From a virus: 47,694 bases of DNA. A program made the translations under genes and the position numbers. The stretch lies in the IMG/VR virus record IMGVR_UViG_3300022538_000189, one strand, 5' to 3'. Below, in pieces: positions 10,675 through 42,431 of this stretch. Below the pieces are notes generated by a model. It searched no databases. It was given only the letters and a program-made list of their open reading frames with translations, and was not told the DNA's origin. Every line of letters begins with the position of its first letter. The first letter of the stretch is position 1.

Positions 10675-10675
10675 C

Positions 10676-12433: not shown

Positions 12434-12442
12434 GATTTTCCT

Positions 12443-20229: not shown

Positions 20230-20239
20230 ATTTCTCCTT

Positions 20240-21640
20240 CTAATAACCCACAAATGGGTCGCTATGTTCTATTACATATTTCAATAAATCTTTTTGTTGT
20301 TTGATATAATCGCTTGTTCTCATTACAATATCCGATTTTTCAGCTAATCCTAACATTCTCATAGCATCTGCTCCGTGAGTATGTTTATCTTTACGTGGTG
20401 TCTCTGACCATATATTGAAAGTTTTATTATAGGATTTTGAATAATTTTCAAGATGCTCAATTAATAATGCAGCTTTAACTCTATCAAAATAACATTTAGG
20501 TATGAAATTTCTTGTGGCTTCTATTCCATCTTGTAAATCAGTTCTCGGAACTAATTGGAAGATGATACCATGTTCCTTTGCTACTGCTATTTGAGGTTTG
20601 CCATCATTAGAAAAGACACGTGCTTTTAAGTCATGTGGTCCATAATGGTTTCCATAAACATAACTAAGTTCTGCTCGGTATTGTTGAAGTATTCCTGCGT
20701 AATGTCCGATACCTTCACCACTATTCTCATAGTAGTTTATAATATGATATTCGCCTGGAAGTTTTTGAAAAAAAATAATTGCGGTAGCATCATCAATTCC
20801 TACATCCCATGCAGTATGAACTGGTAATGCTGGGTCATGCGGTATATTCTTAATTCTTTGTGTTTGCCATGCCTGATTCATCAACCTTGCGTAATAGGCT
20901 CCAGCAGTTCCATAGTCGAAACTACAATAATATTCTTGCTGAATAAAAGCTTCATCTACATTTCTTCTACGCAATGATTCTATTTGAGCAAGTGTGATAA
21001 CAGGACTTCCATCTTCTCTAATGGTATGGTCAATAGTCCTTAGCATGGTAAACCAATCATCATCTTCTTGTGCAAATTTCCATAAATTCCAACCATGATT
21101 TCTACCATTAGGTGTATAAAGGAATTTAGCCCATCCGTCATTCTCTAATAAAATAGGTTCGATAACTTCCCATGCTCGTGGATCTTGATGAGCATACTCT
21201 GAAAATACAGCACCAACACAATTTGTACCACGTGCAGCATCAAAATCATCAGTTCCTATAAATTGGATAATTGAACCATTGATAAGTTCAATTGACATTT
21301 CTGTACTATTAATTTTTGGAAAACCTTTATTGCCAATAGCAATAAGTTCATCTGGGATATAACTAAGAAATCTTCTGCCTGGAATTGGTGGATGATGACG
21401 TGGATCTCCCCCTGTCATTCCTTTCCAGATAACTTTTCTTGCTTGTGTAGCAGTAGGAAAGAAGTAATTATAAGTTCCTATTCTTTCCGTAGCAGCTTTT
21501 GTAACATCATTAACAGCAGTTAAATCTTTTCCTGCCCTTCGATGCCATATATATATCTCACGTAAATACCCCATACCACGTGCTTGTAACATTGGAATTT
21601 GATAATTTCGTGGAGCAAATTCGTGTGGAAGATGTATCAT
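20240..21640 (-). CDS. terL: Terminase large subunit.
   Basis: I chose the ATG at 21640 (SD AAGAGGA). Walker-A-like WHRRAGKDLT sits in the N-terminal ATPase half. The C-terminal nuclease half contains acidic motifs (AWDVGIDDATAI…). The 31-codon upstream extension in the ORF track lacks an SD. Confidence 0.8.
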   Translation of the reverse strand: MIHLPHEFAPRNYQIPMLQARGMGYLREIYIWHRRAGKDLTAVNDVTKAATERIGTYNYFFPTATQARKVIWKGMTGGDPRHHPPIPGRRFLSYIPDELIAIGNKGFPKINSTEMSIELINGSIIQFIGTDDFDAARGTNCVGAVFSEYAHQDPRAWEVIEPILLENDGWAKFLYTPNGRNHGWNLWKFAQEDDDWFTMLRTIDHTIREDGSPVITLAQIESLRRRNVDEAFIQQEYYCSFDYGTAGAYYARLMNQAWQTQRIKNIPHDPALPVHTAWDVGIDDATAIIFFQKLPGEYHIINYYENSGEGIGHYAGILQQYRAELSYVYGNHYGPHDLKARVFSNDGKPQIAVAKEHGIIFQLVPRTDLQDGIEATRNFIPKCYFDRVKAALLIEHLENYSKSYNKTFNIWSETPRKDKHTHGADAMRMLGLAEKSDIVMRTSDYIKQQKDLLKYVIEHSDPFVGY

Positions 21641-21902
21641 GTAGCGTCCTCTTTTGCAGATTATGATATTGATAATGTAATCCGTGTCCTGTGAGGACAC
21701 ACTTTGCAGTTTAAATATAATTTGGCAAACCAAGTAGGAGTTTAACCCACGCCAAAACGTTTGGAGCGTCTTATGCTGTCGTTACACCATTGGCTCACGT
21801 GTTGGATGCACAGGATTTACTTGCAGACCTATTATCTGCTCACCTATACATCCATTAGTGCAGTTTTTTTGGTTATCAGTAGAGACTGCTAACTCTAACA
21901 TT

Positions 21903-21976
21903 TGGGGTGATATGGCAGACTCGAACCGCCTTCGCCTCGTTCACAGCGAGGGGCTTTACCCATAAGCTAATACCAC
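21903..21976 (-). tRNA. tRNA-His (GUG), CCA encoded.
   Basis: Hand-folded cloverleaf. Acceptor GTGGTAT/ATATCAC, D stem GCTT/AAGC, anticodon stem-loop CCTCG-CTGTGAA-CGAGG, T arm GGCGG-TTCGAGT-CTGCC, discriminator C. Confidence 0.75.
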
Positions 21977-21979
21977 AAT

Positions 21980-22055
21980 TGGTGGACCAGAAAGGGACTC
22001 GAACCCTTAATTCCTGCGTGCAAAACAGGTGTTTTCCCAGTTAAACTATCAGCCC
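21980..22055 (-). tRNA. tRNA-Ala (UGC), CCA encoded.
   Basis: Anticodon arm CCTGT-TTTGCAC-GCAGG, D stem GTTT/AAAC, T arm AAGGG-TTCGAGT-CCCTT. The acceptor starts GGG with a G3:U70 pair. There is one extra nucleotide between the T stem and the acceptor 3' strand. Confidence 0.65.
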
Positions 22056-22063
22056 ATAATGCC

Positions 22064-22111
22064 TGGTAGCGGAGCCAACAGACTCACCAGCTTTTGCTGT
22101 ATTTCACTACC
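22064..22111 (-). ncRNA. 48-nt tRNA-slot element: an acceptor-like 7-bp helix with no cloverleaf.
   Basis: GGTAGTG…CGCTACC plus an unpaired A. The interior holds only small hairpins (CAGC-AAAA-GCTG). It occupies a slot between tRNA-Ala and tRNA-Asp with the same 7-8 nt spacing as the real tRNAs. Confidence 0.35.
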
Positions 22112-22118
22112 ATTACAG

Positions 22119-22189
22119 CCGACGTAATCAGAAATGAACTGATATCTTCCTGCGTGACAGGCAGGTGCTTTGCATTAAGCTATACGCCG
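22119..22189 (-). tRNA. tRNA-Asp (GUC), CCA not encoded.
   Basis: Acceptor CGGCGTA/TACGTCG, D stem GCTT/AAGC, anticodon arm CCTGC-CTGTCAC-GCAGG, T arm ATCAG-TTCATTT-CTGAT, discriminator G. Confidence 0.7.
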
Positions 22190-22200
22190 ATATTGATTTA

Positions 22201-22274
22201 CGGAGAAAGTAGGATTCGAACCACCGACTCCTTGCTTCCAAAGCAAGTACGCTGACCAGACTGCGTTACTTCCC
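22201..22274 (-). tRNA. tRNA-Pro (UGG)-like, with a weakened T stem and acceptor stem.
   Basis: The anticodon arm CTTGC-TTTGGAA-GCAAG and D arm ACGC/GCGT are good and the T loop is TTCGAAT. The T stem (GGTGG/CCTAC) and the acceptor each carry 2 mismatches in my hand fold. Confidence 0.5.
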
Positions 22275-22280
22275 AATAAA

Positions 22281-22354
22281 TGGAGCAGATAAAGAGAGTC
22301 GAACTCTTATCTATCGGGTGGAAACCGCTAATACTACCGTTGTACTATACCCGC
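22281..22354 (-). tRNA. tRNA-Gly (UCC), CCA encoded.
   Basis: Acceptor GCGGGTA/TATCTGC (two G:U pairs), anticodon loop TTTCCAC, T arm AAGAG-TTCGACT-CTCTT. The 5' 21 nt overlap the 3' end of the CDS at 22334-22621. Confidence 0.65.
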
Positions 22355-22621
22355 TCTTGCTTTATCTTTTCTTTCTATAATTATATTATTCGCCTCTGCA
22401 TTTGCAATTACTAATGATTGCCAATGTGCCACAAAACTTACAGCATTCTGGACTACCTGTGGAGTTACTCGTTCCTGTAATAAAATGAACTCATCTTCTG
22501 TCATTCGTCTAACTGAGTTAATAAAATCATTTACTACCGATACTGCTGTAACTTCCCCTGCTGTTATAGGAATTGCTAAAAGACTCAAAATAACAACTGC
22601 TATTATTAATATTTTTTTCAT
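22334..22621 (-). CDS. Small secreted or membrane-anchored protein encoded inside the tRNA array.
   Basis: I chose the ATG at 22621 (SD GGAGA; ATGA overlap with the upstream stop). The N-terminus MKKILIIAVVILSLLAIPITAG is signal-peptide-like. 95 aa. Confidence 0.6.
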   Translation of the reverse strand: MKKILIIAVVILSLLAIPITAGEVTAVSVVNDFINSVRRMTEDEFILLQERVTPQVVQNAVSFVAHWQSLVIANAEANNIIIERKDKARAGIVQR

Positions 22622-22806
22622 TTTAAAATCTCCTCTAAACTTTTTGCAGCAATTACAACTTCTTCGGCTTTTTCCATACAAGCATCACATAATAACTCGT
22701 GATGAAATGCTCCTGGCACAATATGCCCATTATAATACTCAATTCTACTTAAATATTTAAGTGGTAAAAGCCTTTTACATTGCAAACAATGACCAAACCT
22801 TTTCAT
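22618..22806 (-). CDS. Small zinc-ribbon protein encoded inside the tRNA array.
   Basis: I chose the ATG at 22806 (SD AAGGAA). 62 aa with CLQC…CDAC. Confidence 0.5.
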   Translation of the reverse strand: MKRFGHCLQCKRLLPLKYLSRIEYYNGHIVPGAFHHELLCDACMEKAEEVVIAAKSLEEILK

Positions 22807-22822
22807 TCTTATTCCTTTTAAA

Positions 22823-22897
22823 TGGAGCCCATAGACCAGAATCGAACTGTCATCTAAGGTATACAACACCCTTATAATACCATTATACTATACAGGC
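22823..22897 (-). tRNA. tRNA-Thr (UGU), CCA encoded.
   Basis: Acceptor GCCTGTA/TATGGGC, anticodon arm AGGGT-GTTGTAT-ACCTT, T loop TTCGATT. The T stem has a 1-nt bulge in my hand fold. Confidence 0.6.
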
Positions 22898-22903
22898 TTA
22901 AAA

Positions 22904-22977
22904 TGGCTATAGAGCACAGAGTTGAACTGTGGTCTCAAGGGTCAAATCCTTGCATCCTACCGTTAAACGACTCTACA
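22904..22977 (-). tRNA. tRNA-Gln (UUG), CCA encoded.
   Basis: U1:A72 and G73 as in bacterial tRNA-Gln. Anticodon arm CAAGG-ATTTGAC-CCTTG, with a perfect T arm CACAG-TTCAACT-CTGTG. Confidence 0.7.
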
Positions 22978-22982
22978 ATAAC

Positions 22983-23048
22983 TTGGCGGAGTACGACTTA
23001 TAAGTATATACCGTCACGTACCACACTATCATGGGAATTTACCGCCAA
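22983..23048 (-). ncRNA. 66-nt tRNA-slot element: a perfect 7-bp terminal helix, no T loop, and no foldable cloverleaf.
   Basis: TTGGCGG…CCGCCAA. Internal palindromes ACTTATAAGT and GTACG…CGTAC. It sits 2-5 nt from the flanking tRNA-Asn and tRNA-Gln. Confidence 0.35.
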
Positions 23049-23050
23049 TA

Positions 23051-23126
23051 TGGCTGCGAAGGCAGGCATCGAACCTGCATATCCCTGATTAACAGTCAGG
23101 TTCATTACCAATTATAATACTTCGCA
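23051..23126 (-). tRNA. tRNA-Asn (GUU), CCA encoded.
   Basis: Acceptor TGCGAAG/CTTCGCA, anticodon arm CCTGA-CTGTTAA-TCAGG, T arm GCAGG-TTCGATG-CCTGC, discriminator G. Confidence 0.8.
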
Positions 23127-23133
23127 ATAAATT

Positions 23134-23222
23134 TAGGGGTGCCATCAGCAGAGGTTAACATGTATGGCGTTCCGCTTGGTGGGTACTTACGATTACCTCA
23201 AACGACTCGGACACTACCCCTA
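23134..23222 (-). ncRNA. 89-nt tRNA-slot element with a Ser/Leu-like D-loop sequence but no T arm; tRNA-like or degenerate class-II tRNA.
   Basis: Terminal helix TAGGGGT…ACCCCTA. CCGAGTCGTTTGAGG resembles a class-II D arm. The best anticodon-like hairpin is GGTA-ATCGTAAG-TACC with an 8-nt loop. No TTCGA-type T loop is present. Confidence 0.3.
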
Positions 23223-23225
23223 AAA

Positions 23226-23299
23226 TGGTACCGATACCTTGAGTTGAACAAAGATCTTCCGCTCATCAAGCAGACGTTCTACCATTGAACTACATCGGT
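23226..23299 (-). tRNA. tRNA-Ile (GAU), CCA encoded.
   Basis: Acceptor ACCGATG/TATCGGT, D stem GTTC/GAAC, anticodon arm TCTGC-TTGATGA-GCGGA, T arm CTTTG-TTCAACT-CAAGG. Confidence 0.75.
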
Positions 23300-27512: not shown

Positions 27513-27542
27513 TTGACAAGTATATTAAATCTATGATAAAAT
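27513..27542 (+). promoter_or_regulatory. Rightward promoter of the plus-strand block.
   Basis: TTGACA at 27513-27518, an 18-nt spacer ending in TGa, and -10 TAAAAT at 27537-27542. Confidence 0.55.
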
Positions 27543-27827: not shown

Positions 27828-28337
27828 ATGAAGAAGATACTGTTTTTTTTGATTCTGTCTATATTCTTTCTAAGTGGATGTATTCATATTTTCGTTCTGC
27901 CTGATGATGCCGAATTTCTTGCCTTAATTGAAGAATTAAATACTCCGAGAAAAGCTTGTCAATATATGTTAGATAATTTTGTTTATAGACCTAATATTTT
28001 AAAACCTATAAATCCATATCAGTTATATTTATGCAAAATGGGAGATTGCGACGACTTCTCTAATTGGGGAGTATTTTTTGCCAATTATCATAATTACGAA
28101 ACTTATCAGATAAAAATATATTACAAAAATACCCCTTATTCCCATTCTCTTGCAGTTTACAAAGAAAATGGAAGATATAACTTTTCAAATAACCAATATT
28201 ATCTTTTCATACAGGCAGAAAATTTTGAGTATATTGTTATATATGATAGTTATTTCTTAATGGAAAGAGAATGGATAAAGTATATCGTTTATGATTACGG
28301 AATGAATGTTATTGAAATAGGATATAATAAAATCTAA
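27828..28337 (+). CDS. Lipoprotein with a transglutaminase-like cysteine protease motif.
   Basis: 169 aa with a signal peptide and lipobox FFLSGC. Contains KMGDCDDFSNWG (Cys), YSHSLAVY (His) and downstream N/D candidates. Paralogous motif to the 46923-47414 protein. Confidence 0.55.
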   Translation: MKKILFFLILSIFFLSGCIHIFVLPDDAEFLALIEELNTPRKACQYMLDNFVYRPNILKPINPYQLYLCKMGDCDDFSNWGVFFANYHNYETYQIKIYYKNTPYSHSLAVYKENGRYNFSNNQYYLFIQAENFEYIVIYDSYFLMEREWIKYIVYDYGMNVIEIGYNKI

Positions 28338-29091: not shown

Positions 29092-29373
29092 ATGTCAGTA
29101 GTATTATTTCAGAATATCGAAGTAACTAAGACCCTGACAAATAGCCCACAGAGAACCAAAAAGACTACAACCTTTAAATGGAAATTCACTTTCAGAAATT
29201 TATCTTTTTCTGGAACACTAAGCAACGAAAATATTAATTTCACTCGAAAAGAACAAATAGACTTATTTCAGGAAATGATTAATACAATGAAATGTATCGA
29301 AGAAGGGAGAATAAAAGGATTAAAATCCTTAGAAAAAGAGGAAGGAAGGAGATTTTTAGAATATAATGGATAA
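29092..29373 (+). CDS. Hypothetical protein.
   Basis: 93 aa with SD aaaggagtga. Confidence 0.45.
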   Translation: MSVVLFQNIEVTKTLTNSPQRTKKTTTFKWKFTFRNLSFSGTLSNENINFTRKEQIDLFQEMINTMKCIEEGRIKGLKSLEKEEGRRFLEYNG

Positions 29374-29821
29374 TAAGATAGTATTGATAAAATCAAAAAA
29401 ACAAAAGCAAATTGATTTTTTGAAGAAACTTGTAAAAGAACCAAGAGACCGAGCAAAAGACAGCTTAATGAAACAAACTGACCGAGCCATTGAAGCAATA
29501 GTAGAATTTAAAGCCGACCTTGTAACAAACGGAATAAATACCCATATATACGATTTTGATTATAACGACACAGCGGATATATTCAAGCCTCTGAAAGAGA
29601 TTATTGGATATATGGATTTTATAATTGAAACCGAAGTAAATCGCATTGTTGAAATATCCCTTGAAAGTACACTTGACGAAATCAACTATATGGAAGAAAA
29701 AGCCTTACACGAAAGAGCAAAGAAGTTATTACAAAAAAGGAAAGAAAAAGCCGACAAAGAACACGACAAGACAGTAACAAAACTTAGGAATAAAAACGGA
29801 ACTATCTTTTTCAATTATTAA
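29366..29821 (+). CDS. Hypothetical helical protein.
   Basis: 151 aa; overlaps the upstream gene by 8 nt. Confidence 0.45.
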   Translation: MDNKIVLIKSKKQKQIDFLKKLVKEPRDRAKDSLMKQTDRAIEAIVEFKADLVTNGINTHIYDFDYNDTADIFKPLKEIIGYMDFIIETEVNRIVEISLESTLDEINYMEEKALHERAKKLLQKRKEKADKEHDKTVTKLRNKNGTIFFNY

Positions 29822-29840: not shown

Positions 29841-30017
29841 ATGAAATATTTTTTTAATAGTTTGAGGAAAATGGATTTTGAGAAAATCAAAATATCTCAA
29901 GCCCTAAGACTTTTCAAATTTAACTATCTTAGGGGAAGAATAGAAAGAAAGGAGTATAAATATTTAGTGAAACTAATCTATAAAAATAAAAAAATGAAAA
30001 GGAGATTCGCACATTGA
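29841..30017 (+). CDS. 58-aa basic protein, translationally coupled to the amidoligase gene.
   Basis: ATG at 29841 with SD aaggaaggag. Its TGA (30015-30017) overlaps the TTG start of the next gene (TTGA). It is below the ORF-track size cutoff. Confidence 0.45.
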   Translation: MKYFFNSLRKMDFEKIKISQALRLFKFNYLRGRIERKEYKYLVKLIYKNKKMKRRFAH

Positions 30018-31606
30018 ACACAGAAAAAAAAGTTAATAAATTAACCTGTGAAGGTTGCAAGAAGAAAATTGATGAAAGATACGCCCTTGAAAGCGGAGAT
30101 TGTTATTATTGCCTGGATTGTTGGCTGGGTAAGTACGAAAACCACCTACTATTTCACTATGATTATAAACCGAAGCCAATATTTTGTAAAATGTCATTCG
30201 AGAAGAACCCTCTTTTCTTAGGAATTGAGCTTGAAGTAGAAGCAAACGACGACACCGATGAATATTATGATGATGAAGACGACGACAGCAACAGCGACGG
30301 TTATTTACAGGATTATGCTTATGGTATTATGAAATCGTACCCCTGTTATATCAAATACGATGGAAGCCTCAATAATCATGGAATGGAGATTGTAACCCAC
30401 CCGCAATCGGTTAAATATCATAAGAGGATTTTTAAGTGGAAGCAACTGCTTGAAACATTAAAAGCTGACGGATTCACCTCGTACAAAAATAATAGATGCG
30501 GACTACATATCCACATATCAAAAAAATGGTTTAAGCCAGAAGATTTTTTGAAATTTAACATATTTTTTGATAAAAATTTCTCTGTAATGAAACGCTTTTC
30601 AAAAAGGACAAAGACAAACTATTGTAATAAAGTAAATGCAGAAGAAACAAGAAGAATATCCAAAGATAAAAAGAAAGCACAACTTGAGGAGTGGTACGAT
30701 CATTATAGATGTGTATATTTCGGAAATCCTACCACGATAGAACTCCGTATATTCAGAGGAACTCTTGATATAGACCGCTTTAATGCCACCCTTGATATAA
30801 CGGAAGCCCTTGCCTATTTTGTTAAAAGTTATTCACTTGTATTTTTTATCAAGGCAACTAAAAAACAATTATGGTTTTCATTCTTAGCTTTTATGAAACA
30901 ATCAAAGAAATACCATAAGTTATTAAAATACTTAGAAAAAAAGACCCTTCTATATTGCCCTCTTAACAATATACCAAGACAAGGAACAATACTTGAAAGT
31001 AATGTAGAGAGAAAAGACCTTCTAACTTTAATGGGAAATTCCAATATTAAAGAATTTTTGAAAGGGAAAGAATTAAATAAATTGGAGTATTATTTTGATG
31101 ATTTTGAAGATTATATAATTAACTATCAAAATGATGTCTATTTCCTAAGAGATAATTGCTATCTACCGATTAATTTTGAGAAAATAGTAATGTATAACAA
31201 ACATTACAACGCACAAAAGCGAAAAATGATTTTAGATTTTTTTATTGAGTACGGTTTTACTTTTGAGATTCAAAGGGAAAATATAAATCTAAATATCAGA
31301 AATAGAAAAGAATTCGCCACAGCTTTAGGAGTAGATATAGACAAGATTAGGAAAGAAAGGGAAAAGAAAAACCAACTTGACGAAAAGCTAATGAAAAAAG
31401 CCAACAAGAGAGCAGGGAGAACCAGGAATAATAATATTTACGGTACACTAGAATTTACAAGAACAGGTAGGACTAATAGTGTGATAAGCATAGACACCAA
31501 GAATCGAGATTGGGAAACAGAGAAAATTCACCGCCTGATAACAAAAGCCCTTGCAAAAAGAGAGAATAAACATTATATCTTTATAATCAAAAATAAAAAT
31601 AATTAA
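30014..31606 (+). CDS. Amidoligase (Amidoligase_2 family, glutamine-synthetase-like fold) with an N-terminal zinc ribbon.
   Basis: 530 aa with a TTG start (SD GGAGA 8 nt upstream). CEGC…CYYCLDC at the N-terminus, then LGIELEVEA, an acidic insert, YIKYDGSLNNHGMEIVTHP, CGLHIHISK and TIELRIFRGT. Confidence 0.65.
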   Translation: MNTEKKVNKLTCEGCKKKIDERYALESGDCYYCLDCWLGKYENHLLFHYDYKPKPIFCKMSFEKNPLFLGIELEVEANDDTDEYYDDEDDDSNSDGYLQDYAYGIMKSYPCYIKYDGSLNNHGMEIVTHPQSVKYHKRIFKWKQLLETLKADGFTSYKNNRCGLHIHISKKWFKPEDFLKFNIFFDKNFSVMKRFSKRTKTNYCNKVNAEETRRISKDKKKAQLEEWYDHYRCVYFGNPTTIELRIFRGTLDIDRFNATLDITEALAYFVKSYSLVFFIKATKKQLWFSFLAFMKQSKKYHKLLKYLEKKTLLYCPLNNIPRQGTILESNVERKDLLTLMGNSNIKEFLKGKELNKLEYYFDDFEDYIINYQNDVYFLRDNCYLPINFEKIVMYNKHYNAQKRKMILDFFIEYGFTFEIQRENINLNIRNRKEFATALGVDIDKIRKEREKKNQLDEKLMKKANKRAGRTRNNNIYGTLEFTRTGRTNSVISIDTKNRDWETEKIHRLITKALAKRENKHYIFIIKNKNN

Positions 31607-31622
31607 AAGGAGAAAAAAATAT

Positions 31623-32435
31623 ATGTGTATAATTGTTTTTAAACCCAAAGGAGTAAAACCACCAAAGGAAAAAATTTTAAGGAACTGCTTTTCAAACAAT
31701 GCTGACGGTATGGGAATAGCAATTCAAAGGGATAATAAAATAATAATTAATAAATTTATGAAAATAGAGCCTTTTATAAATCATATCAGACATAGCGTAA
31801 GAAAAGAAGATAATGTTATTTATCACTTTAGGATTGCTACGCATGGAAGGGTTAGCATTGAAAACGCCCACCCTTTTATTATCACAAAAGACTGTAAAGA
31901 AATGAACGAAAGCGAGAGTATAACAGAAAAGAATATCTTAGCCCATAACGGAATAATAATTTCTTTAGTTGACGATCAAAAAACAAACGATAGTAAGGTT
32001 TTAGCCCACATTTTAGCCGACAGGGAGATTAACAGAAACCTTTTTAAATCGAAAGGAATAAGAAAGTTAATTAAAACTATCTTAGCAACCGACAAGCTAA
32101 TAATAATGAATAAATCAGGTAACTTTTTTATGATAGGAGATTTTGAAAGGGAAAAAGGAATATACTATTCAAACCTAACCTATAAATATAATACTGAATA
32201 CTTACAAAGATACTATGATGATTATTATTATATCCCCTGGAATAGCAAAGACAAAAAATCTAACCTGACAATCGAAGAAGCAAAAAGGCAGAAATTATTA
32301 TCCGAAACCGATAAAATTAGGGTTAGTGGTGCTTGTTGTGCATATTGTAACACCAGGAAAGAAGTATATTATTTCTGGGATATCGAAGAAAATCTTTGTG
32401 AAAACTGTTTCCATTCAATCTATGAAATAGAATAA
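31623..32435 (+). CDS. Class-II (Ntn, Cys2) glutamine amidotransferase with a C-terminal zinc ribbon.
   Basis: 270 aa. N-terminal MCIIVF with Cys directly after the Met. Also ADGMGIA, HFRIATHG, ENAHPF, LAHNGII and NDS. C-terminal CCAYC…CENC. Confidence 0.65.
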   Translation: MCIIVFKPKGVKPPKEKILRNCFSNNADGMGIAIQRDNKIIINKFMKIEPFINHIRHSVRKEDNVIYHFRIATHGRVSIENAHPFIITKDCKEMNESESITEKNILAHNGIIISLVDDQKTNDSKVLAHILADREINRNLFKSKGIRKLIKTILATDKLIIMNKSGNFFMIGDFEREKGIYYSNLTYKYNTEYLQRYYDDYYYIPWNSKDKKSNLTIEEAKRQKLLSETDKIRVSGACCAYCNTRKEVYYFWDIEENLCENCFHSIYEIE

Positions 32436-32450
32436 GGAATAGGAAGAAAA

Positions 32451-32487
32451 ATACCCTGCAATTTTGATATTGCAGGGTATTTTTTTT
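32451..32487 (+). terminator. Rho-independent terminator ending the amidoligase operon.
   Basis: ATACCCTGCAAT-6 nt-ATTGCAGGGTAT (12-bp stem) followed by TTTTTTT. Confidence 0.85.
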
Positions 32488-32620
32488 GTGTCAGGAAAAA
32501 AGACCTCGAAAAACCCCCTAAATTCTGCTTTTAAACCCTCTTTACATACAAACACAAGCAAAAATAACAAAACCCCACCAGCAACGCATACGACCCCTTA
32601 AATCCGATTTGTTAATAAAA

Positions 32621-32731
32621 TGTGTATAACTTTTGGAAAATGTGTATAACTGAAAAAAAATGTTGAAAAAGTGTTAATAAATCGAAAAAAATGTGGAAAA
32701 CCTGTGGAAAACTCTTGACTTTTGTGGATAA
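32621..32731. promoter_or_regulatory. Cluster of five same-orientation DnaA-box-like 9-mers.
   Basis: TGTGTATAA at 32621 and 32641; TGTGGAAAA at 32692 and 32703; TGTGGATAA at 32723. Their complements are TTATACACA, TTTTCCACA and TTATCCACA. Weaker TGTTGAAAA and TGTTAATAA lie between them. Confidence 0.6.
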
Positions 32732-32743
32732 CTATGTTATAAT
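32715..32743 (+). promoter_or_regulatory. Consensus promoter whose spacer contains a perfect DnaA box.
   Basis: TTGACT (32715-20), 17-nt spacer tttGTGGATAActatgt, TATAAT (32738-43). Confidence 0.65.
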
Positions 32744-32864
32744 ATTTATAGAATTTTGAACAGAAGAAAAATGTAAGAAAATCGAACATAAAAACCAGAC
32801 AGGAAAAAAGACCTAAGATGAAAATAAAATAAAAACTTAAATGAAGGCGAAAGTCAAAAAAAGA

Positions 32865-32893
32865 CTTGACAAATAAGAAAAAGTGTGATACAA
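32865..32893 (+). promoter_or_regulatory. Promoter of the conserved family (P6), rightward.
   Basis: TTGACAAATAAGAAAAAGTGTGATACAAT with a 17-nt spacer and TGTGn extended -10. Confidence 0.65.
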
Positions 32894-32921
32894 TAAAAAC
32901 AAAAAGGGGGTGATAAATAAT

Positions 32922-36249: not shown

Positions 36250-36392
36250 CCTATCACCCCCTTATAAGCTATGTATATTAATTTATACAAATCAATGAAG
36301 CTATCTATTACTAATCCGACCATAACAACCTTAAATGTAAACCAGAACAGACCTGTACATTGAACCCACGTTAAATCATATAAAAATGTCAT
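36237..36392 (-). CDS. 51-aa membrane micropeptide candidate.
   Basis: ATG at 36392 in an ATGA overlap with the rtcB stop. Sequence MTFLYDLTWVQCTGLFWFTFKVVMVGLVIDSFIDLYKLIYIAYKGVIGWVK. Confidence 0.4.
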   Translation of the reverse strand: MTFLYDLTWVQCTGLFWFTFKVVMVGLVIDSFIDLYKLIYIAYKGVIGWVK

Positions 36393-37564
36393 CCTTTTAT
36401 CACCCCTATTGGTATTAATCGTTCTTTTATTTCACAAAGATCTTTCTGTAATTCCATTACTTTATCTATGTTCTTGTAAGCAGAAGGAGCTTCATCTAAC
36501 TGACTGACTGTTCTCACGCTATGGATTACTCCCTTTAATTCGAGCTTATGCTGTTCTTCTGCTAAGTCTAATTCTGCTTTAGCTTTAGACCTTGACATTT
36601 TTCTCCCTGCACCATGAGAACAGGAAGTAAAACTTTCAGGATTACCAAGCCCTTTAGTTATGTAACTAAAACTCCCCTGACTGCCAGGAATTATCCCTAT
36701 CTCTCCAAGTCTCGCACTTATAGCACCCTTTCTATGCACCCATACATTCTTACCAAAATGGTTTTCCTGTCTTACGTAGTTATGTATGACATCTATATCT
36801 TCCTCTATAAATGCACTAAGCAAGTGCTTATCCAAGATATTTTTAATCTTATCCATCATAACCCTTCTATTGGCTTCTGCAAACTCCACACAATAATTCA
36901 TTTCTTTTAAGTAATCTTGCCCCTCTTTACTATCAACTGGTAAGAAAGCTAAGTCATAACTCGGAGCCACCTGCGTATGCCATTTAGCATTTAAGTCTTT
37001 GGCTAATTGATTATAATGTGACGCAACTTTATACCCCAAGTTCCTGCTTCCAGAGTGTAGCATTATCCACAAGCTATTATCCTCACCCACCTGAAACTCA
37101 ATGAAATGATTGCCACCACCAAGAGTTCCTAATTGTTGTGCGGCACTTTGCAATTCATCAGGTATGACATCCTTTGTCAGTAAGTTCCAATGCAATGGCG
37201 GTAATGCGTCAGAATTTGCTTCTTCATTATGTTTGAAACCGACAGGAATTACCTCTCTGATTTCACTCATTAACTCCTTAACTTTTTCTTTCTTTAATTG
37301 CACTACATTTAATTTGATTGCCCTCATTCCGCAACCTATGTCAACGCCTACTGCATTAGGTATGATATAAGCATGAGTAGCTAACACCGTACCAATAGGC
37401 ATACCATAGCCCTGATGACAGTCAGGAAGTAGCACTATTTGTCTATAAGAAAAAAACAACTTAGATAAGTTCTCTGCTTGTAACATTGCTCCGTTCTCTA
37501 TATAATCTAACCACATCTTAATTGGTATTCTATTATTTCTCTTATCAAATTTTACTCTTTCCAT
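36389..37564 (-). CDS. rtcB: RtcB RNA 3'-phosphate/2',3'-cyclic-phosphate ligase.
   Basis: 391 aa from the ATG at 37564 (TAATG coupling). Motifs VDIGCGM, GGGNHFIE, HSGSRNLG, PGSQGSFSY and SCSHGAGR. Confidence 0.85.
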   Translation of the reverse strand: MERVKFDKRNNRIPIKMWLDYIENGAMLQAENLSKLFFSYRQIVLLPDCHQGYGMPIGTVLATHAYIIPNAVGVDIGCGMRAIKLNVVQLKKEKVKELMSEIREVIPVGFKHNEEANSDALPPLHWNLLTKDVIPDELQSAAQQLGTLGGGNHFIEFQVGEDNSLWIMLHSGSRNLGYKVASHYNQLAKDLNAKWHTQVAPSYDLAFLPVDSKEGQDYLKEMNYCVEFAEANRRVMMDKIKNILDKHLLSAFIEEDIDVIHNYVRQENHFGKNVWVHRKGAISARLGEIGIIPGSQGSFSYITKGLGNPESFTSCSHGAGRKMSRSKAKAELDLAEEQHKLELKGVIHSVRTVSQLDEAPSAYKNIDKVMELQKDLCEIKERLIPIGVIKG

Positions 37565-38172
37565 TAGCAACCACCCTCTTTCTTTATTATTTTAATTAAT
37601 TGCATTTCTATTCTTTCAAGTTCTTCCATTGAATGCTTTGCAATTCCACCATTCTTTAGTGCTCTATCCTGTATCATAGTATACCATGCTTTGCCTCTAA
37701 TGTCAATCATCTTTTGTAAAAACCAAAAAGGATTTTTATGAGCACTCCATATTGAAAAGACGTGATGTTTAACACACAACGCTACGCCATTATCAACGTC
37801 CCACCTGACATTGAAATTCGATCTTCCAATAAGATGATGAGCATTTAGTCCGTGCCCTTTTCCTAATCCATTTACATTCTGACATCTTTTATCTGTCACA
37901 ATCTCACATCTATTTTGAGCAATTACCTTTACTGCTTGAGCCCACAAAACATCTAATCGTTTCTTTAATATCCATCTTGCAGTATGCTTCTTCTTAGGAC
38001 GACCACCTATTCGTCTAACTTTTGGACACCACGAAGGAGCAGTATCCTCAATCATATTAGAAAGAGGAATTTCGTTTTGTTTCCTCTGAGTAAGAGAGCA
38101 TTGAACACCCAGCCCTTTTACTCCAAGTATATAGTGTGAACACTTCTTACATTTAACGTCCTTTTTCTTCAT
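37564..38172 (-). CDS. NinG/Rap-like HNH-type endonuclease with an N-terminal zinc ribbon.
   Basis: 202 aa from the ATG at 38172 (SD AAGGAAGTGAT). CKKC…, then LNAHHLIGRSNFNVRWDVDNGVALCVKHH. Confidence 0.5.
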   Translation of the reverse strand: MKKKDVKCKKCSHYILGVKGLGVQCSLTQRKQNEIPLSNMIEDTAPSWCPKVRRIGGRPKKKHTARWILKKRLDVLWAQAVKVIAQNRCEIVTDKRCQNVNGLGKGHGLNAHHLIGRSNFNVRWDVDNGVALCVKHHVFSIWSAHKNPFWFLQKMIDIRGKAWYTMIQDRALKNGGIAKHSMEELERIEMQLIKIIKKEGGC

Positions 38173-38509
38173 TCTTATCACTTCCTTTCAATAGCTCGTG
38201 AGCGTAACCCATTGTATTAAACATAACACCCATCAATGCTTTCATTATTCCATCTTCTGTTTTAATACCCCTGTGTTCTTTCCATACTGCCATAAAATGA
38301 CGGAATAAAGATTTCATATAAGTTTCATAAGGTATTCCTTTTTGCCAGTTATCTGATTTTCTCACACCAAGTGCTGTATGTCTATTTTTTTCCATATATT
38401 TAGCAAACTCTTCAAGCACTAAAGGAGAAAAAAATCCTTCATAATCCAATTTACCTTCTACTATGTCTCTCGTTGCTCCTGTTTCAAATTCACGCATTTT
38501 TTTAACCAT
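38153..38509 (-). CDS. DUF5664-like protein (dATP/dGTP diphosphohydrolase N-terminal-like domain).
   Basis: 118 aa. REFETGATRD…GKLDYEGFFSP…NWQKGIPYETYMKSLFRHF matches my recollection of that family's pattern: F.tGA.Rd, then NW.kG, then s..RH. Confidence 0.45.
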   Translation of the reverse strand: MVKKMREFETGATRDIVEGKLDYEGFFSPLVLEEFAKYMEKNRHTALGVRKSDNWQKGIPYETYMKSLFRHFMAVWKEHRGIKTEDGIMKALMGVMFNTMGYAHELLKGSDKNEEKGR

Positions 38510-38876
38510 TCTTGAACCTCTTTTTCAAAATTTTATAAGTCTTTAACCAACCAGGAAACCCCTGCAAATTCAAATCATCTATATAGGCATCTGCATAGAT
38601 CTTTTTTGTATTCCACCAATAAACTTGCTTTACATTCTCATTTATGCATTCAAAATATTTTAGAATATCCCATTTTTCCATGAGTTTTATAGGTTCTTCT
38701 AACCACGCTTTACTTCTACAAGTCCAGAGTATCATTCTATACCCTTCATTATATAACTTTTTCAATACCTTTTTGCAATTTGGCATTAATTTATTCTCTG
38801 TATCAATAGCTCTTTTGCTCTCTCTTATTGTCCCATCAAAATCTATCGCCAATATTGGCTTTCCTAAATAAGCCAT
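38502..38876 (-). CDS. Small HAD-superfamily (DxDxT) phosphatase.
   Basis: 124 aa. LAIDFDGTI at the N-terminus and YIDD near the C-terminus. SD AAGGGGGTGATATAA. Confidence 0.55.
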   Translation of the reverse strand: MAYLGKPILAIDFDGTIRESKRAIDTENKLMPNCKKVLKKLYNEGYRMILWTCRSKAWLEEPIKLMEKWDILKYFECINENVKQVYWWNTKKIYADAYIDDLNLQGFPGWLKTYKILKKRFKNG

Positions 38877-39377
38877 TTATATCACCCCCTTATCAAAATG
38901 TTCTCTTGCTTTTCTATTTAATATTTCTATTATCTGTTCATCTGTGAAGTAACATTGGCTACGTGGATTACGTCCTTTGGCATCCCAACGTGCCAACTGT
39001 ATTAAATCAGGGAGCCAACAGTGGTTTGCTAACTCCAAACATTTCTTTAATCCCTGCATTTCTCCTTTTAAATATGTCCAGATTCTCATGTGATGTTTTA
39101 CTAACCATACAGTTTTACAACTCGAAAATCCTTCTATGAGCTTGACACTATCCTTTGTGTGGTGATTACTGTAAGTCACTTTCCCCACATCATGCAAGAG
39201 TACCGCCAAAATCAAATCCAAGTCCATTGTTTCTCTTATCGCCCACTTGAATACTTGATAAGTATGTTTCAATGCGTCTCCTTCAGGGTGATATTCTACT
39301 TGCTGTTCAATACCTTTCAAAGCATGTAATACATCAAGAATTGGTTTCATATTCTTTTTTGTAAAATAATCTTCCAT
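38877..39377 (-). CDS. HD-domain phosphohydrolase (resembles the HD domain of CCA-adding enzymes).
   Basis: 166 aa from the ATG at 39377 (SD ATGGGGGTG). Motifs YHPEGDALKHT and LLHDVGK. Confidence 0.6.
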   Translation of the reverse strand: MEDYFTKKNMKPILDVLHALKGIEQQVEYHPEGDALKHTYQVFKWAIRETMDLDLILAVLLHDVGKVTYSNHHTKDSVKLIEGFSSCKTVWLVKHHMRIWTYLKGEMQGLKKCLELANHCWLPDLIQLARWDAKGRNPRSQCYFTDEQIIEILNRKAREHFDKGVI

Positions 39378-39378
39378 A

Positions 39379-40341
39379 TTAACACCCCCATAACATCTTT
39401 TCAACCTCAAACATTATAAATTTTTCCCAATACTTTCTATCTACTTTATCAGGATAGTCGCTTGCGACTGCTAAGTCTTTTACTTCTCCGATAAGAGTTT
39501 CCAGTAAAGGAGCAACTTCGCTCTTGTAATCTATTTTTCCTGCTTTGATATCTTTCAAGTATTCTGCTTGTGCCAATGGAAATTTTATTTCTCCATCTTT
39601 ATAGAGTTCTATCAACTGCATTGAGGCTCTTATAGCATGAGATACTGCCTTCCAATCTATTCCTTCATTCTTTTCTGCTAATCTTGCTCTTGCACCATAA
39701 GCATTATAAAACGTTACCATTATATCAAAAAGATATCGCAAGGTAGCAGTCTCCTGTATTTTTTTACCACATACTTGATAAATCCTAAGTCTGTCCTTTC
39801 CTATCTCGTATTTATGGATATGTTCTCTTTGTGGTAGTTTATCCCAAACCTGCTTTAATCTTGTCTTGTTCATATCATTACCCTTCTGTGTATCAAAATC
39901 ATTAATGAAATCCATAACTTTTCCAGCAGAGGCTAACCTACTCCCCTTAATTCCATATTTAGAAGCTTGTCTCATTGCATATCCTACAAAAGCATGCATG
40001 TCTTTTGTTATGAAAAGATGTTTATTGAGACATATTGCTTTCCAAGTATCTGATGTTTCTAAAATCATATCATCAGGAGCGTGAAGCATATCAATAGCAA
40101 CGGTTTGCCCCTGACAAGCCAATTCCAAAAAGTAATGTAACGAATAGACTTCTGTATCTGTATCTCCCGAAGTATTTTTGCCTACTCCAACCTTTGTTTT
40201 TTCTGAATAACATTTTGGTATTCTCCCTAAAAATATTTGTTCTTTAGTGGGCATAAATATACCCTTATAATCAGTATCAGAATCTTTCGTATCTGTTCCG
40301 TATAAATGACTTCCGAATTTCATTTTTACTATTGTATTCAT
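39379..40341 (-). CDS. Pol-beta-superfamily nucleotidyltransferase of the RlaP (RNA-repair-associated) type.
   Basis: 320 aa. N-terminal KFGSHLYGTDTKDSDTDYKGIFMP. TAATG-coupled to dnaB. Confidence 0.55.
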   Translation of the reverse strand: MNTIVKMKFGSHLYGTDTKDSDTDYKGIFMPTKEQIFLGRIPKCYSEKTKVGVGKNTSGDTDTEVYSLHYFLELACQGQTVAIDMLHAPDDMILETSDTWKAICLNKHLFITKDMHAFVGYAMRQASKYGIKGSRLASAGKVMDFINDFDTQKGNDMNKTRLKQVWDKLPQREHIHKYEIGKDRLRIYQVCGKKIQETATLRYLFDIMVTFYNAYGARARLAEKNEGIDWKAVSHAIRASMQLIELYKDGEIKFPLAQAEYLKDIKAGKIDYKSEVAPLLETLIGEVKDLAVASDYPDKVDRKYWEKFIMFEVEKMLWGC

Positions 40342-41627
40342 TACTTACCACCGCCTTGATATAAGTCAGGTTGATATTGAGTAAAAGAAATGTGTTCCAT
40401 TCGTGCATATTCAGGAAATATATTAACCCCTATCCTTCCTATCGTACCGTCTCTATTCTTACTGATCAATATCTTCATTTCTTCAGGTTCTTCTCCGCCA
40501 AACCTTTCAGGATTAATCATTTGTAGTCTCTCTTTCCAATACAATAACAACACAATATTGCTAACTTCCTCTATCCTGCCTGATTGTCTTAAATCACTCA
40601 ATCTCGGTTCTCTAATCTCTTCGTTGTTACGATTGAACTGTGATAAACAGACAGTTCCAAGTCCATTTCGTAATGTCATTCGTTGTAATTCGATAATATT
40701 ATTTGACGTAGAGGTATAATCCTGTTCACCTAAATTCTGCAAGTAATCGAATACTAAGAAGTCGGGTTTATACTTTCTAACATATTTATTTGCGTCAGTC
40801 ATGCTAAAGACTTTCTTGATGTTCAAATTCCATTCCCCTGAAATTTGTTTTGCTCGTCTTTGTAATCTATTCTGTTCTTCATCGGTAAGATTATTTTTTC
40901 TAATCCTCATAATAGGAATTAACTCAAGATTACCCAATAATCTCCTACTTACTTCTTGCGGTGTCATTTCGGTAGATAAAAATAAAACCCCCTTACCACA
41001 CTTACATTGATTAATAGCCATTTGCATACCTGCAACTGACTTACATTGTGAAGTCCAACCGCCTATAGTTAAGAGTTCTCCTCTATCTAATCCGCCTATA
41101 TATTTATTTAAACTTCTTATCCCGAAAGTAAACTCTGTTCCTTTGGTAACTTCCATTAAAGTTTTTTCAAGCAACATTTGTAATGTTTCTTCTTTAATCT
41201 CTATATTATTGAGAGTTTCTAATTCTGTCAAAGCATCATCAATAGTCATTTGTCCGTCATTTACTGCTGTCAAAAGTCCATGCTGTGCTCTTTTGATAGA
41301 TGCTTTTTGAATTAAAGCGACATAATGCTCTATATTTTTAGGTGTAGGAACTGAATTCACTAAATTGGTAAGATACGTAACACCACCTATTTTTTCTAAC
41401 TTGCCTACCTCATTCAATCCTGATGTAATAGTTACTAAATCTACATTGACACCTGTTTGTAGCATATCTACCATCAATTTATATATTGTCTTATGCTCAC
41501 CTTTGTAAAAGTCATTTGGTGACAATGTCTCAACTGTAATGAAGAAAGCGTCCTCGTCTAATAAACAACTTCCAAGACAAGCCTGTTCTGCATTTATTTC
41601 TTGTGGTAAATTCTTTGTTAAGTTCAA
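40341..41627 (-). CDS. dnaB: DnaB-family replicative helicase.
   Basis: 428 aa with a TTG start (SD AGGGGGTG). Motifs NAEQACLGSCLLD, FDYLQNL and LRQSGRIEEVSNIVLLLY. The P-loop reads GGWTSQCKS, not GxxxxGK[ST]. Confidence 0.75.
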   Translation of the reverse strand: MNLTKNLPQEINAEQACLGSCLLDEDAFFITVETLSPNDFYKGEHKTIYKLMVDMLQTGVNVDLVTITSGLNEVGKLEKIGGVTYLTNLVNSVPTPKNIEHYVALIQKASIKRAQHGLLTAVNDGQMTIDDALTELETLNNIEIKEETLQMLLEKTLMEVTKGTEFTFGIRSLNKYIGGLDRGELLTIGGWTSQCKSVAGMQMAINQCKCGKGVLFLSTEMTPQEVSRRLLGNLELIPIMRIRKNNLTDEEQNRLQRRAKQISGEWNLNIKKVFSMTDANKYVRKYKPDFLVFDYLQNLGEQDYTSTSNNIIELQRMTLRNGLGTVCLSQFNRNNEEIREPRLSDLRQSGRIEEVSNIVLLLYWKERLQMINPERFGGEEPEEMKILISKNRDGTIGRIGVNIFPEYARMEHISFTQYQPDLYQGGGK

Positions 41628-41729: not shown

Positions 41730-42431
41730 TTAATTCAAATCTTTCAATACTCCACTTGTTACTGTACCACACTTTTGCCTATTTGTCAAGTATTTATATT
41801 CTTCTAAATAGTTTCCATATTTAGTCTTGTTAAAAACAGTAGATGGTCGGAGATACATTTCAAATTCTGTTCCCATTCTCTTTTTACAAATGAACTTAAT
41901 TACTTCGCAAATCTCCTCGATAGGAGAGCCATCTTTAACTCTTGCTTTTATGTTAGACAAAACAGTTCTGTTATCGAACTTGAAATTCCGCCCTGTCAAG
42001 TTATTCAAAACTTCAATAGGGGATCTGTATTTAGCTATCAAGTCAACAAGAGTATTAATGTTATTATCAGTATTTGGTATATTAGTATTTAATAGTACTT
42101 CATTTTCAACGTGCCTGTTTTGTACATCTTGCTTCTGATTCTGTGGGTCTTGTATCAAGAAATATTCATTACCTGAAATTTTATTGTCTTTTCTCAATAC
42201 AACACAATGGATATAACCCTTTTTTGTAAGTTCTCTTATTCCATTTCTTATTGACTTCTCTCCATTTGTAAAATGTGTAAGCAGTTCGGTTATATGTAAA
42301 TCCCAATTATCGGGCAAGGTCAAAAGGTATGCAAAGATACCCTTTGCCTTAGCCGATAGTGATGTGTCTCTTATCCATCTATTACTCATTACTGTAAAGT
42401 CTCTTGCGACTTTACTTCGTATTATCCTCAC
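41730..42431 (-). CDS. Replication initiator/organiser (DnaD-like N-terminal wHTH plus a conserved phage C-terminal domain).
   Basis: 233 aa with a GTG start (SD GAGGGGGAA). FTVMSNRWIRDTSLSAKAKGIFAYLLTLPDNW… and a C-terminal part …NLTGRNFKFDN…IKARVKDG…YLRPSTVF. Confidence 0.65.
   Translation of the reverse strand: MRIIRSKVARDFTVMSNRWIRDTSLSAKAKGIFAYLLTLPDNWDLHITELLTHFTNGEKSIRNGIRELTKKGYIHCVVLRKDNKISGNEYFLIQDPQNQKQDVQNRHVENEVLLNTNIPNTDNNINTLVDLIAKYRSPIEVLNNLTGRNFKFDNRTVLSNIKARVKDGSPIEEICEVIKFICKKRMGTEFEMYLRPSTVFNKTKYGNYLEEYKYLTNRQKCGTVTSGVLKDLN
41761..41789 (-). promoter_or_regulatory. Promoter family member P5, inside the 3' end of the initiator gene and upstream of dnaB.
   Basis: Minus-strand sequence TTGACAAATAGGCAAAAGTGTGGTACAGT. 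Confidence 0.5.

Follow-up and report, generated by a model that had tools for sequence, protein, structure and literature searches.

A divergent phage cassette encoding a predicted amidoligase and a predicted class-II glutamine amidotransferase in an uncultured viral genome

The three-gene locus and its predicted enzymes

The window analyzed here is the viral contig IMGVR_UViG_3300022538_000189 of IMG/VR at its full length of 47,694 nt. Positions 29841-32487 hold three open reading frames (ORFs) on the plus strand that encode, in this order, a basic protein of 58 amino acids (aa), a predicted amidoligase of 530 aa and a predicted class-II glutamine amidotransferase (GATase) of 270 aa (Table 1); the ligase and GATase genes are referred to below as the cassette. 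An initial annotation, made from the letters and a list of ORFs, had described three ORFs in this order, an amidoligase motif series with a poly-acidic insert, a CxxC...CxxC ribbon on each enzyme, an N-terminal nucleophile cysteine in the GATase, a TTGA coupling of the small ORF to the ligase gene and a strong terminator, and all of these are borne out by the analysis that follows.

The stop codon of the 58-aa ORF overlaps the TTG start codon of the ligase gene (CAT-TGA/TTG, within cacaTTGAac). This overlap, which is constant in close relatives, suggests that the two genes are translationally coupled. AGGAG is located 8 nt upstream of the TTG, and the choice of this start codon agrees with the N-termini (M..TNTEKK) of 11 homologs. 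The GATase gene follows after a gap of 16 nt. Its ATG at 31623 is the earliest start possible downstream of an in-frame stop and is preceded by the ribosome-binding site AAAGGAG; the next codon, TGT, specifies Cys2. As no earlier in-frame start is possible and the ATG-TGT pair is served by its own ribosome-binding site, the sequence implies that Cys2 would necessarily become the N-terminus of the mature enzyme upon removal of Met1. The terminator hairpin has a z-score of -6.5, with equally good folding in none of 200 shuffled sequences. Its stem lies between an A-run and a T-run, and the terminator, which appears to end the operon, could therefore be used in both directions.

The 530-aa protein matches the Pfam family Amidoligase_2 (PF12224) over aa 96-264 with a score of 38.9 bits (cut-off 22) and PHROG 16683 over aa 7-310 with an E-value of 1.7e-36. 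A search of viral models returned dozens of phage proteins annotated "amidoligase enzyme", the top match being a protein of the cluster S mycobacteriophage Tesla (E 1.7e-15). The motifs GIELEVE, YDGSL..GMEIVTHP, GLHIHIS and ELRIFRGT are all present, and an alignment of 99 amidoligase homologs shows no change at residues E72, E74, D116, H167, R198 and R245. Apart from the zinc-finger part, the sequence profile gave no match in the PDB. The AlphaFold2 model (predicted local distance difference test, pLDDT, 89.7; predicted template modeling score, pTM, 0.79) was compared with solved structures by Foldseek, for which the closest folds are YbdK (1r8g, 1tt4; a GCS2-type enzyme), glutamine synthetase (GS), GmaS, PafA and Dop. 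These enzymes belong to the superfamily of carboxylate-amine ligases that form an acyl phosphate. E-values are 1.8e-4 for 1r8g and 1e-3 to 4e-2 for GS, GmaS and Dop/PafA, at probabilities of 0.8-1.0; the TM-scores are low (0.2-0.4) and the sequence identity is 7-15%. The ligase shares acidic, His and Arg residues with these relatives and differs from them in having additional N- and C-terminal modules. The conserved residues and the model together suggest that the full acidic/His/Arg set used by this fold for ATP, Mg2+ and acyl-phosphate formation is retained, and that the protein is an intact carboxylate-amine ligase of the GS/gamma-glutamylcysteine ligase (GCS) fold. Of the additional modules, the N-terminal zinc ribbon is modeled at pLDDT 94-98 and the family profile matches LIM-type zinc fingers. 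All four of its cysteines are unchanged across 12 close homologs; in the wider set of 99, C36 never varies and each of C12, C15 and C33 is kept in at least 90%.

The 270-aa protein has a marginal match to Pfam GATase_4 (23.9 bits, cut-off 23). A profile of 48 GATase sequences matches PurF at E 5.6e-8, and also the glutaminase domains of GlmS/GFAT and the YafJ-like structure 1te5. Foldseek comparison of the model (pLDDT 86.6) gave a probability of 1.0 for the GlmS glutaminase domain, PurF and EgtC, with the GlmS and PurF glutaminase domains outscoring EgtC. Residues H68, R70, T73, H108, N109, G110 and D123 are invariant among the 48 sequences, in which Met1-Cys2 is at least 90% conserved; in a set of 23 aligned homologs Met1-Cys2 is invariant. 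In an alignment with PurF, the segments HFRIATHG, HNG and SDT fall on the Arg, Asn-Gly and Asp positions known from that enzyme (R73, N101, G102 and D127). It appears that the Arg and Asp for the α-carboxylate and α-amino groups of the substrate, as well as the Asn-Gly oxyanion hole, are retained, and that the protein is an intact N-terminal nucleophile (Ntn) class-II glutamine (or gamma-glutamyl) amidohydrolase with Cys2 as the nucleophile. In the model a low-confidence linker connects the Ntn domain with the C-terminal zinc ribbon, of which C239 and C259 are at least 90% conserved among the 23 homologs; the full CxxC...CxxC motif is retained throughout the close family. Given their conserved catalytic residues and fold matches, both enzymes look catalytically competent, and we hold the two identities jointly with high confidence.

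Specific to this lineage are the acidic insert, the orphan 226-aa C-terminal domain of the ligase and the coupled 58-aa protein. The acidic loop is modeled at pLDDT 53-72, and a comparable insert is found in one other cassette lineage alone. The C-terminal region is predicted to comprise a β/α module, a long basic helical hairpin and a terminal strand, with confidence except for a loop at ~aa 471-490. No credible Pfam or PDB-sequence match was obtained for it, individual members giving scattered sub-threshold Pfam hits; a search of 1.84 billion representative proteins returned a single match, which belongs to the same close family. The Foldseek search, made with the whole ligase model, is dominated by the ligase domain. 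The 58-aa protein has a calculated isoelectric point of 10.6. It shares 64-67% identity with homologs. Against three homologs its ratio of nonsynonymous to synonymous changes (pN/pS) is 0.16-0.21, and the ORF is thus a real gene under purifying selection. Its 11 homologs all lie within this phage lineage, where about a dozen metagenomic relatives (47-64% identity) retain a whole block of a 151-aa ORF, the 58-aa ORF, the ligase gene and the GATase gene. A role as a Pup-like tag or as the precursor of a ribosomally synthesized and post-translationally modified peptide was considered for the 58-aa protein and rejected: the C-terminus is variable (..RRFAH, ..IKHIG, ..AYATN, ..RRKN), it lacks the terminal Gln/Glu of a tag for a PafA/Dop-type system, and the protein is confined to one lineage. 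Probably the acidic loop, the basic C-terminal domain and the 58-aa protein tune or direct the choice of substrate. Such lineage-specific extensions are the norm in the amidoligase family, as ligase lengths range from 224 to 730 aa.

Distribution of the cassette and its relation to known systems

The GATase clade is present on 248 IMG/VR viral contigs, from which 76 loci were fetched and reduced to 52 non-redundant viral lineages. An amidoligase homolog lies within 10 kb of the GATase gene in 51 of the 52, and in 38 it is located directly upstream on the same strand, at a distance of -9 to 367 nt (median ~25 nt). The GATase begins with Met-Cys in 48 lineages. The conserved pairing of the two genes, together with the same gene order in the mycobacteriophage Marvin, argues for functional coupling of ligase and GATase. 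Clustering of the neighboring ORFs in the 52 lineages revealed no third family common to more than about five of them, replication proteins excepted.

At least two CxxC motifs are found at the N-terminus of the ligase in 20 of the 38 adjacent pairs and within the last 80 aa of the GATase in 23 of the 52 lineages; both partners carry a ribbon in 11 of the 38 pairs. Ribbon presence on one enzyme is not associated with presence on the other (Fisher p = 0.75), and the idea that the two ribbons co-evolve as an interaction pair was rejected on this basis. As accessory modules the ribbons are optional, and they may serve for docking; targeting to nucleic acid or protein, which the initial annotation read from them, is a candidate role. 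The double ribbons emphasized by the initial annotation are therefore present but not special to this locus, recurring in about a fifth to half of the cassette lineages and in Marvin. Fusions in the longer homologs were inspected as clues to the substrate: most are additional zinc-finger arrays, and one homolog has sub-threshold Tudor-like repeats, too weak to use.

In Marvin (cluster S) an amidoligase gene is likewise followed by a GATase gene on one strand (gp105/gp106; annotated "glutamine amidotransferase domain protein"). As in the window, gp105 has an N-terminal Cys-rich zinc ribbon followed by the amidoligase domain, and gp106 starts with MCIL... and ends in a Cys-rich zinc-binding segment. 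The locus described here thus has the Marvin-type layout of a co-oriented Amidoligase_2 gene directly upstream of a short GATase starting with Met-Cys, with ribbons on both proteins. The identity between the two is, however, only ~22-26%, and the two phages have unrelated hosts and, outside the cassette, unrelated genomes. Furthermore, neither the acidic insert nor the 226-aa C-terminal domain is present in gp105 (453 aa), and Marvin has no coupled 58-aa ORF. The locus is a new, divergent member of a phage cassette that is already annotated in many phages. Among cultured phages it is carried, besides the cluster S mycobacteriophages, by the OM43 phages MEP401/402, by Bifidobacterium phages and by Xanthomonas phage DES1. 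Hosts range over mycobacteria, clostridia, bifidobacteria, and proteobacteria of the Pseudomonas type and OM43, and the cassette also occurs in an archaeal virus. Carriers in culture, such as Marvin, are better experimental systems than this uncultured phage.

The phiEco32/LUZ24-type system comprises COOH-NH2_lig (PF14395), Amidoligase_2, GATase_6 and ATP-grasp proteins, and in LUZ24-like phages the amidoligase and GATase occur in the early module as part of this larger, four-enzyme version (PMC3890496). The window shares with it an Amidoligase_2 ligase and a class-II GATase in an early or non-structural phage region. In contrast to that multi-ligase arrangement, no match to PF14395 or ATP-grasp was obtained for any ORF of at least 90 aa in the complete genome, and the GATase is a short, 270-aa protein that matches GATase_4 and has a zinc ribbon rather than a 486-aa GATase_6 protein. 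The locus L006 of a distantly related phage (JGI 3300037067 Ga0378408_0005830, positions 1258-13558) pairs this GATase clade with both ligase families, the GATase gene lying between the genes for an Amidoligase_2 and a phiEco32-type COOH-NH2_lig protein. Two radical-SAM genes precede the ligase and GATase genes of L006, and RlaP and RtcB genes flank the region. This locus may represent a richer version of the system and be more informative on the substrate.

Two further loci are of note. On the 440-kb jumbo contig IMGVR_UViG_3300001528_000580, tandem arrays of cassette paralogs occupy two separate regions: one (L015, 5966-15628) contains five GATase paralogs, most with C-terminal CxxC motifs, and one zinc-ribbon amidoligase; the other (L075, 10001-15916) contains one GATase and five amidoligase paralogs, three with N-terminal CxxC motifs. 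The expansion of the cassette on this contig is striking. In Clostridioides phage AR1086-1 (L009, 3677-5866) the amidoligase is without a zinc ribbon and no GATase gene adjoins it; the next gene encodes an unannotated protein with an RlaP-type nucleotidyltransferase motif (GGSFAYG...SDLD).

The pair has been labeled variously as an auxiliary metabolic gene, a superinfection-exclusion factor or cell-wall modifier, and a secondary-metabolite enzyme (PMC10580990; PMC11318856; PMC11706807). For each label, either Iyer et al. 2009 or Mageeney et al. 2012 is cited as the source. As an auxiliary metabolic gene, annotated as such in PMC10580990, PMC11706807 and PMC10945688, the pair would boost nitrogen, glutamine or glutamate metabolism of the host, to which the GS-like fold of the ligase would lend itself. 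However, the ligase belongs to Amidoligase_2 and is not a bona fide GS: its TM-score to GS is 0.2-0.3, and it matches none of the NCBIfam equivalogs for GS, GCS or AsnB. Variable zinc-finger arrays, orphan domains and paralog expansions are, moreover, more typical of conflict or host-takeover genes. A metabolic role of this kind is the least credible of the explanations weighed here, and extremely unlikely.

Genome setting

Identical direct repeats of 86 bp at the two contig ends (1-86 and 47609-47694) indicate a circularly closed, complete phage genome of ~47.6 kb. The contig was deposited and binned inside a metagenome-assembled genome of Candidatus Atribacteria, and the region has no DNA similarity to known deposited phages. 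An adaptor match and a weak portal match indicate a predicted podovirus structural module of the SU10/phiEco32-like type; phiEco32 is the phage after which the COOH-NH2 ligase family was named.

The cassette constitutes the last genes of an operon of small plus-strand genes between the structural and replication modules, a placement that would suit a function in early host takeover. A sigma-70-like promoter heading the plus-strand block likely starts an operon of ~4.9 kb that ends with the cassette; the promoter is a consensus match alone, in an AT-rich region where promoter-like sites are no commoner than in shuffled sequence. The 169-aa lipoprotein that opens the block has a motif reminiscent of transglutaminase-like cysteine peptidases. 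It was considered as a transglutaminase-like partner of the cassette and dismissed: no Pfam or PHROG family matches it apart from a sub-threshold hit to LPAM_1 (lipoprotein signal peptide), and the gene is not retained in the related 46.7-kb contig L001. The 151-aa protein has no Pfam, PHROG or NCBIfam family. Since its gene immediately precedes the 58-aa ORF in each of the four related loci (identity 40-48% in L001, L003 and L004), it may be cassette-associated.

Just past the terminator, in the intergenic region 32490-32910, five DnaA-box-like 9-mers (TGTGGATAA, at most one mismatch) lie on the same strand within 111 bp (32621-32731). The perfect box is located inside the spacer of a strong sigma-70-like promoter, TTGACT(32715)..TATAAT(32743), which is followed by a second promoter at 32866-32894. 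The cluster could mark an origin of the phage, or an early promoter under DnaA control. The Cas4-like exonuclease recurs downstream of the cassette in related and unrelated contigs (L001, L003, L063, L067, L073). PADLOC, with its models of known anti-phage defense systems, gave no match for the amidoligase, the GATase or the 58-aa ORF.

The genes for RtcB, RlaP and an HD-domain protein, ~4-8 kb from the cassette (36389-40341, minus strand), form an RNA-repair set that is also kept in L001. Together with the nine tRNA genes, this set suggests pressure from host anticodon nucleases. A general link between the cassette and RNA repair was considered and not upheld: by phmmer, RtcB or RlaP occurs near the cassette only in the window lineage and in L006, of more than 50 lineages. 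The same genes bear on a possible role of the pair in nucleic-acid hypermodification, in which an amide-linked side chain would be built on a DNA or RNA base. Lee et al. 2021 (PMC8989533) do report Pfam domains of both enzyme types, amidoligase and amidotransferase, in some thymidine-hypermodification clusters alongside 5-HMUDK and aGPT-Pplase. Zinc ribbons on both proteins, the basic C-terminal region of the ligase and the heavy investment in tRNA genes and RNA repair would be in keeping with such a role, as would the position of the L006 cassette between RlaP and RtcB and beside radical-SAM genes, and the RlaP-like gene directly downstream of the amidoligase in the C. difficile phage. On the other hand, the ribbons are optional across the family and the RtcB/RlaP association is limited to the two lineages given above. 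The enabling genes are also missing: among the ORFs of at least 90 aa of the complete genome, no Pfam or PHROG match to a hydroxymethylase, 5-HMUDK, aGPT-Pplase, TET/JBP, DpdA/TGT or glycosyltransferase was found, in line with the initial annotation, which had seen no DNA-hypermodification genes, and such families do not recur near the cassette in the 52 lineages. On this ground DNA hypermodification is rejected, and modification of nucleic-acid bases in general is considered very unlikely.

Table 1 Features of the cassette locus and of the surrounding genome (positions in the window; stop codons included where indicated).
Feature	Position	Strand	Description
58-aa ORF	29841-30017	+	Very basic (pI 10.6); stop overlaps amidoligase start
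530-aa amidoligase (predicted)	30014-31606 incl. stop	+	TTG start; zinc ribbon, GS/GCS-fold Amidoligase_2 domain, orphan C-terminal domain
N-terminal Cys4 zinc ribbon	30047-30121	+	C12-x2-C15 ... C33-x2-C36 of amidoligase
Catalytic carboxylate-amine ligase domain	30191-30913	+	~aa 60-300 of amidoligase
Poly-acidic loop	30245-30304	+	aa 78-97 of amidoligase, ANDDTDEYYDDEDDDSNSDGYL, just past the E-x-E metal-binding strand
Orphan C-terminal region	30926-31603	+	aa 305-530 of amidoligase
270-aa class-II (Ntn) GATase (predicted)	31623-32435 incl. stop	+	Ntn domain ~aa 1-190; Cys2 codon 31626-31628
C-terminal CxxC...CxxC zinc ribbon	32337-32408	+	C239, C242, C259, C262 of GATase
Intrinsic terminator	32447-32484		16-bp stem, then T-run; -25.6 kcal/mol
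Sigma-70-like promoter (putative)	27513-27542	+	TTGACA, 18-nt spacer, TAAAAT, with TG; 11/12 consensus positions
169-aa lipoprotein	27828-28337	+	Opens plus-strand block; signal peptide, lipobox, GDCDDFS...H motif
151-aa protein	29366-29821	+	Directly 5' of 58-aa ORF in 4/4 related loci
SU10/phiEco32-like adaptor	12443-13126	-	SU10_adaptor, 50 bits
SU10/phiEco32-like portal	18322-20253	-	Weak SU10_portal match
Nine tRNA genes	21723-23299	-	Trp, His, Ala, Asp, Pro, Gly, Gln, Asn, Ile
PD-(D/E)XK/Cas4-like exonuclease, 314 aa	34086-35030	+	phrog_2139, E 5e-42; C-terminal Cys cluster
RtcB ligase	36389-37570	-	Family match
HD-domain protein	38877-39410	-	Family match
RlaP nucleotidyltransferase	39379-40341	-	Family match
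DnaB helicase	40341-41627	-	Family match
Replication initiator	41730-42431	-	HTH_36 / Phg_2220_C
GH108 lysin	45128-45571	-	Family match

Candidate reactions and targets

Phage modules of amidoligase and GATase were reportedly predicted by Iyer et al. in 2009, and papers of 2023-2025 still describe them speculatively. The reading adopted here, as a tentative one, is that the cassette would be a self-contained two-enzyme amidation module in an early operon. The amidoligase and the GATase would form a complex in which the GATase hydrolyzes glutamine and passes NH3 to the ligase, and the ligase phosphorylates a carboxylate of the substrate with ATP and converts it to the carboxamide (R-COOH to R-CONH2). 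It is the conserved adjacency of the two genes that points to transfer of ammonia from the GATase to a partner synthase. The ammonia-donor role is favored because a ligase and a hydrolase acting on the same bond, without an intervening enzyme, would constitute a futile cycle. The acceptor would be something present in every infected cell, whether a conserved macromolecule, an envelope precursor or a central metabolite, since the pair is accompanied by no conserved third gene in dozens of lineages with unrelated hosts. The mechanism as a whole falls somewhat short of probable, and a two-component glutamine-dependent amidotransferase acting on a ubiquitous target is proposed with the same reserve.

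The logic of such a module would be that of MurT/GatD or GatCAB, in which a separate subunit with glutaminase activity supplies NH3 to one that acts as an ATP-dependent ligase or kinase, assembled here from non-homologous parts. MurT and GatD, encoded by adjacent co-transcribed genes, form a two-gene system for the glutamine-dependent amidation of D-iso-glutamate in lipid II (PMC3267633). MurT has the Mur-ligase fold and GatD is a class-I (triad) GATase, whereas the cassette combines a GS/GCS fold with a class-II Ntn enzyme; the resemblance is one of mechanism only and not of family membership.

Several points weigh against an ammonia-donor role. The literature searched contains no experiment on, and no demonstrated substrate of, any cassette member, in line with the initial annotation, according to which no substrate had been demonstrated for most such modules. 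EgtC and the other stand-alone GATases of class II and GATase_4 type that have been characterized hydrolyze gamma-glutamyl amides and are not ammonia donors, and EgtC is among the structural matches of the window GATase. In other phages, including Clostridium prophages, amidoligases are paired with a gamma-glutamyl cyclotransferase, which points to gamma-glutamyl conjugates (PMC11318856).

The main alternative is the conjugation and de-conjugation of a gamma-glutamyl or other aminoacyl group. The ligase would then join an amine of the target to a carboxylate, either the gamma-carboxylate of glutamate or one on a protein or peptide, and the Ntn enzyme would be a gamma-glutamyl amidohydrolase that removes or processes the tag, following the logic of EgtA/EgtC, PuuA/PuuD and PafA/Dop. 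The best structural relatives of the ligase, YbdK, GS, GmaS, PafA and Dop, all perform gamma-glutamyl chemistry, the GATase matches GATase_4, with EgtC among its structural matches, and one of its homologs, in phage C75C1, is annotated as a gamma-glutamyl cyclotransferase. Peptide tagging is among the proposals of Iyer et al. 2009, as quoted by citing papers. The ergothioneine pair EgtA/EgtC has the same pairing of folds, a GCS-type ligase with a stand-alone class-II Ntn amidohydrolase. EgtC structures (4zfl, 4zfk, 4zfj) match the GATase model with probability 1.0 and a TM-score of ~0.5 on the target at ~16% identity, and share Cys2, Arg, Asn-Gly and Asp with it. In the Egt pathway, however, EgtB and EgtD act between ligation and cleavage, whereas the cassette has no such conserved partner, and conjugation would be futile unless another enzyme intervened. 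Further, no Pup-like tag is found, the 58-aa protein having the shortcomings given above, and the GlmS and PurF glutaminase domains score above EgtC. Conjugation is accordingly judged unlikely, though not negligible.

The envelope has been suggested as the target, a choice that can be combined with either amidation or conjugation chemistry. Here the pair would amidate or aminoacylate a cytoplasmic precursor of peptidoglycan, teichoic acid or polysaccharide, such that later phages cannot adsorb or lysis is altered. Citing papers repeatedly attribute this explanation to Iyer et al. 2009 for phiEco32 (PMC10580990; PMC11318856; PMC11706807), and the structural module of the present genome is SU10/phiEco32-like. 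Lipid II amidation by MurT/GatD is a direct precedent for a ligase and GATase pair acting in this way (PMC3267633). Against a single envelope target, the envelopes of the hosts are very different, from mycobacteria to proteobacteria and even the host of an archaeal virus. The two enzyme sequences have no membrane or secretion signal, and the genome is of lytic type, with no integrase or repressor identified. Superinfection exclusion through the envelope is thus improbable.

A more specific possibility is that this lineage has re-tooled the cassette into a three-protein modifier of macromolecules, in which the 58-aa protein, the acidic loop, the C-terminal domain and the two ribbons would direct amidation or glutamylation onto a nucleic-acid-bound substrate. 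By analogy, this might be a tRNA-linked Glu or Asp, in the manner of GatCAB, or a base of the anticodon loop. The nine phage tRNAs, which include those for Gln, Asn and Asp, and the RtcB, RlaP and HD-domain proteins may be cited beside this proposal, which we regard as very unlikely indeed; if true, it would give phages a new enzymatic means of controlling the translation apparatus or protecting it.

Cassettes of amidoligase and class-II GATase are among the most widespread phage enzyme modules whose substrate is unsolved. The minimal unit consists of two genes, the ribbons are optional and mutually independent, and genomes can carry the pair without DNA-hypermodification machinery; together, these properties focus the hypotheses on glutamine-dependent modification of a cellular target that is ubiquitous. 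The locus described here adds a lineage-specific variant to the family and is not the best experimental entry point. The substrate, once solved, would reveal new host-takeover or counter-defense chemistry in phages of bacteria and possibly of archaea.

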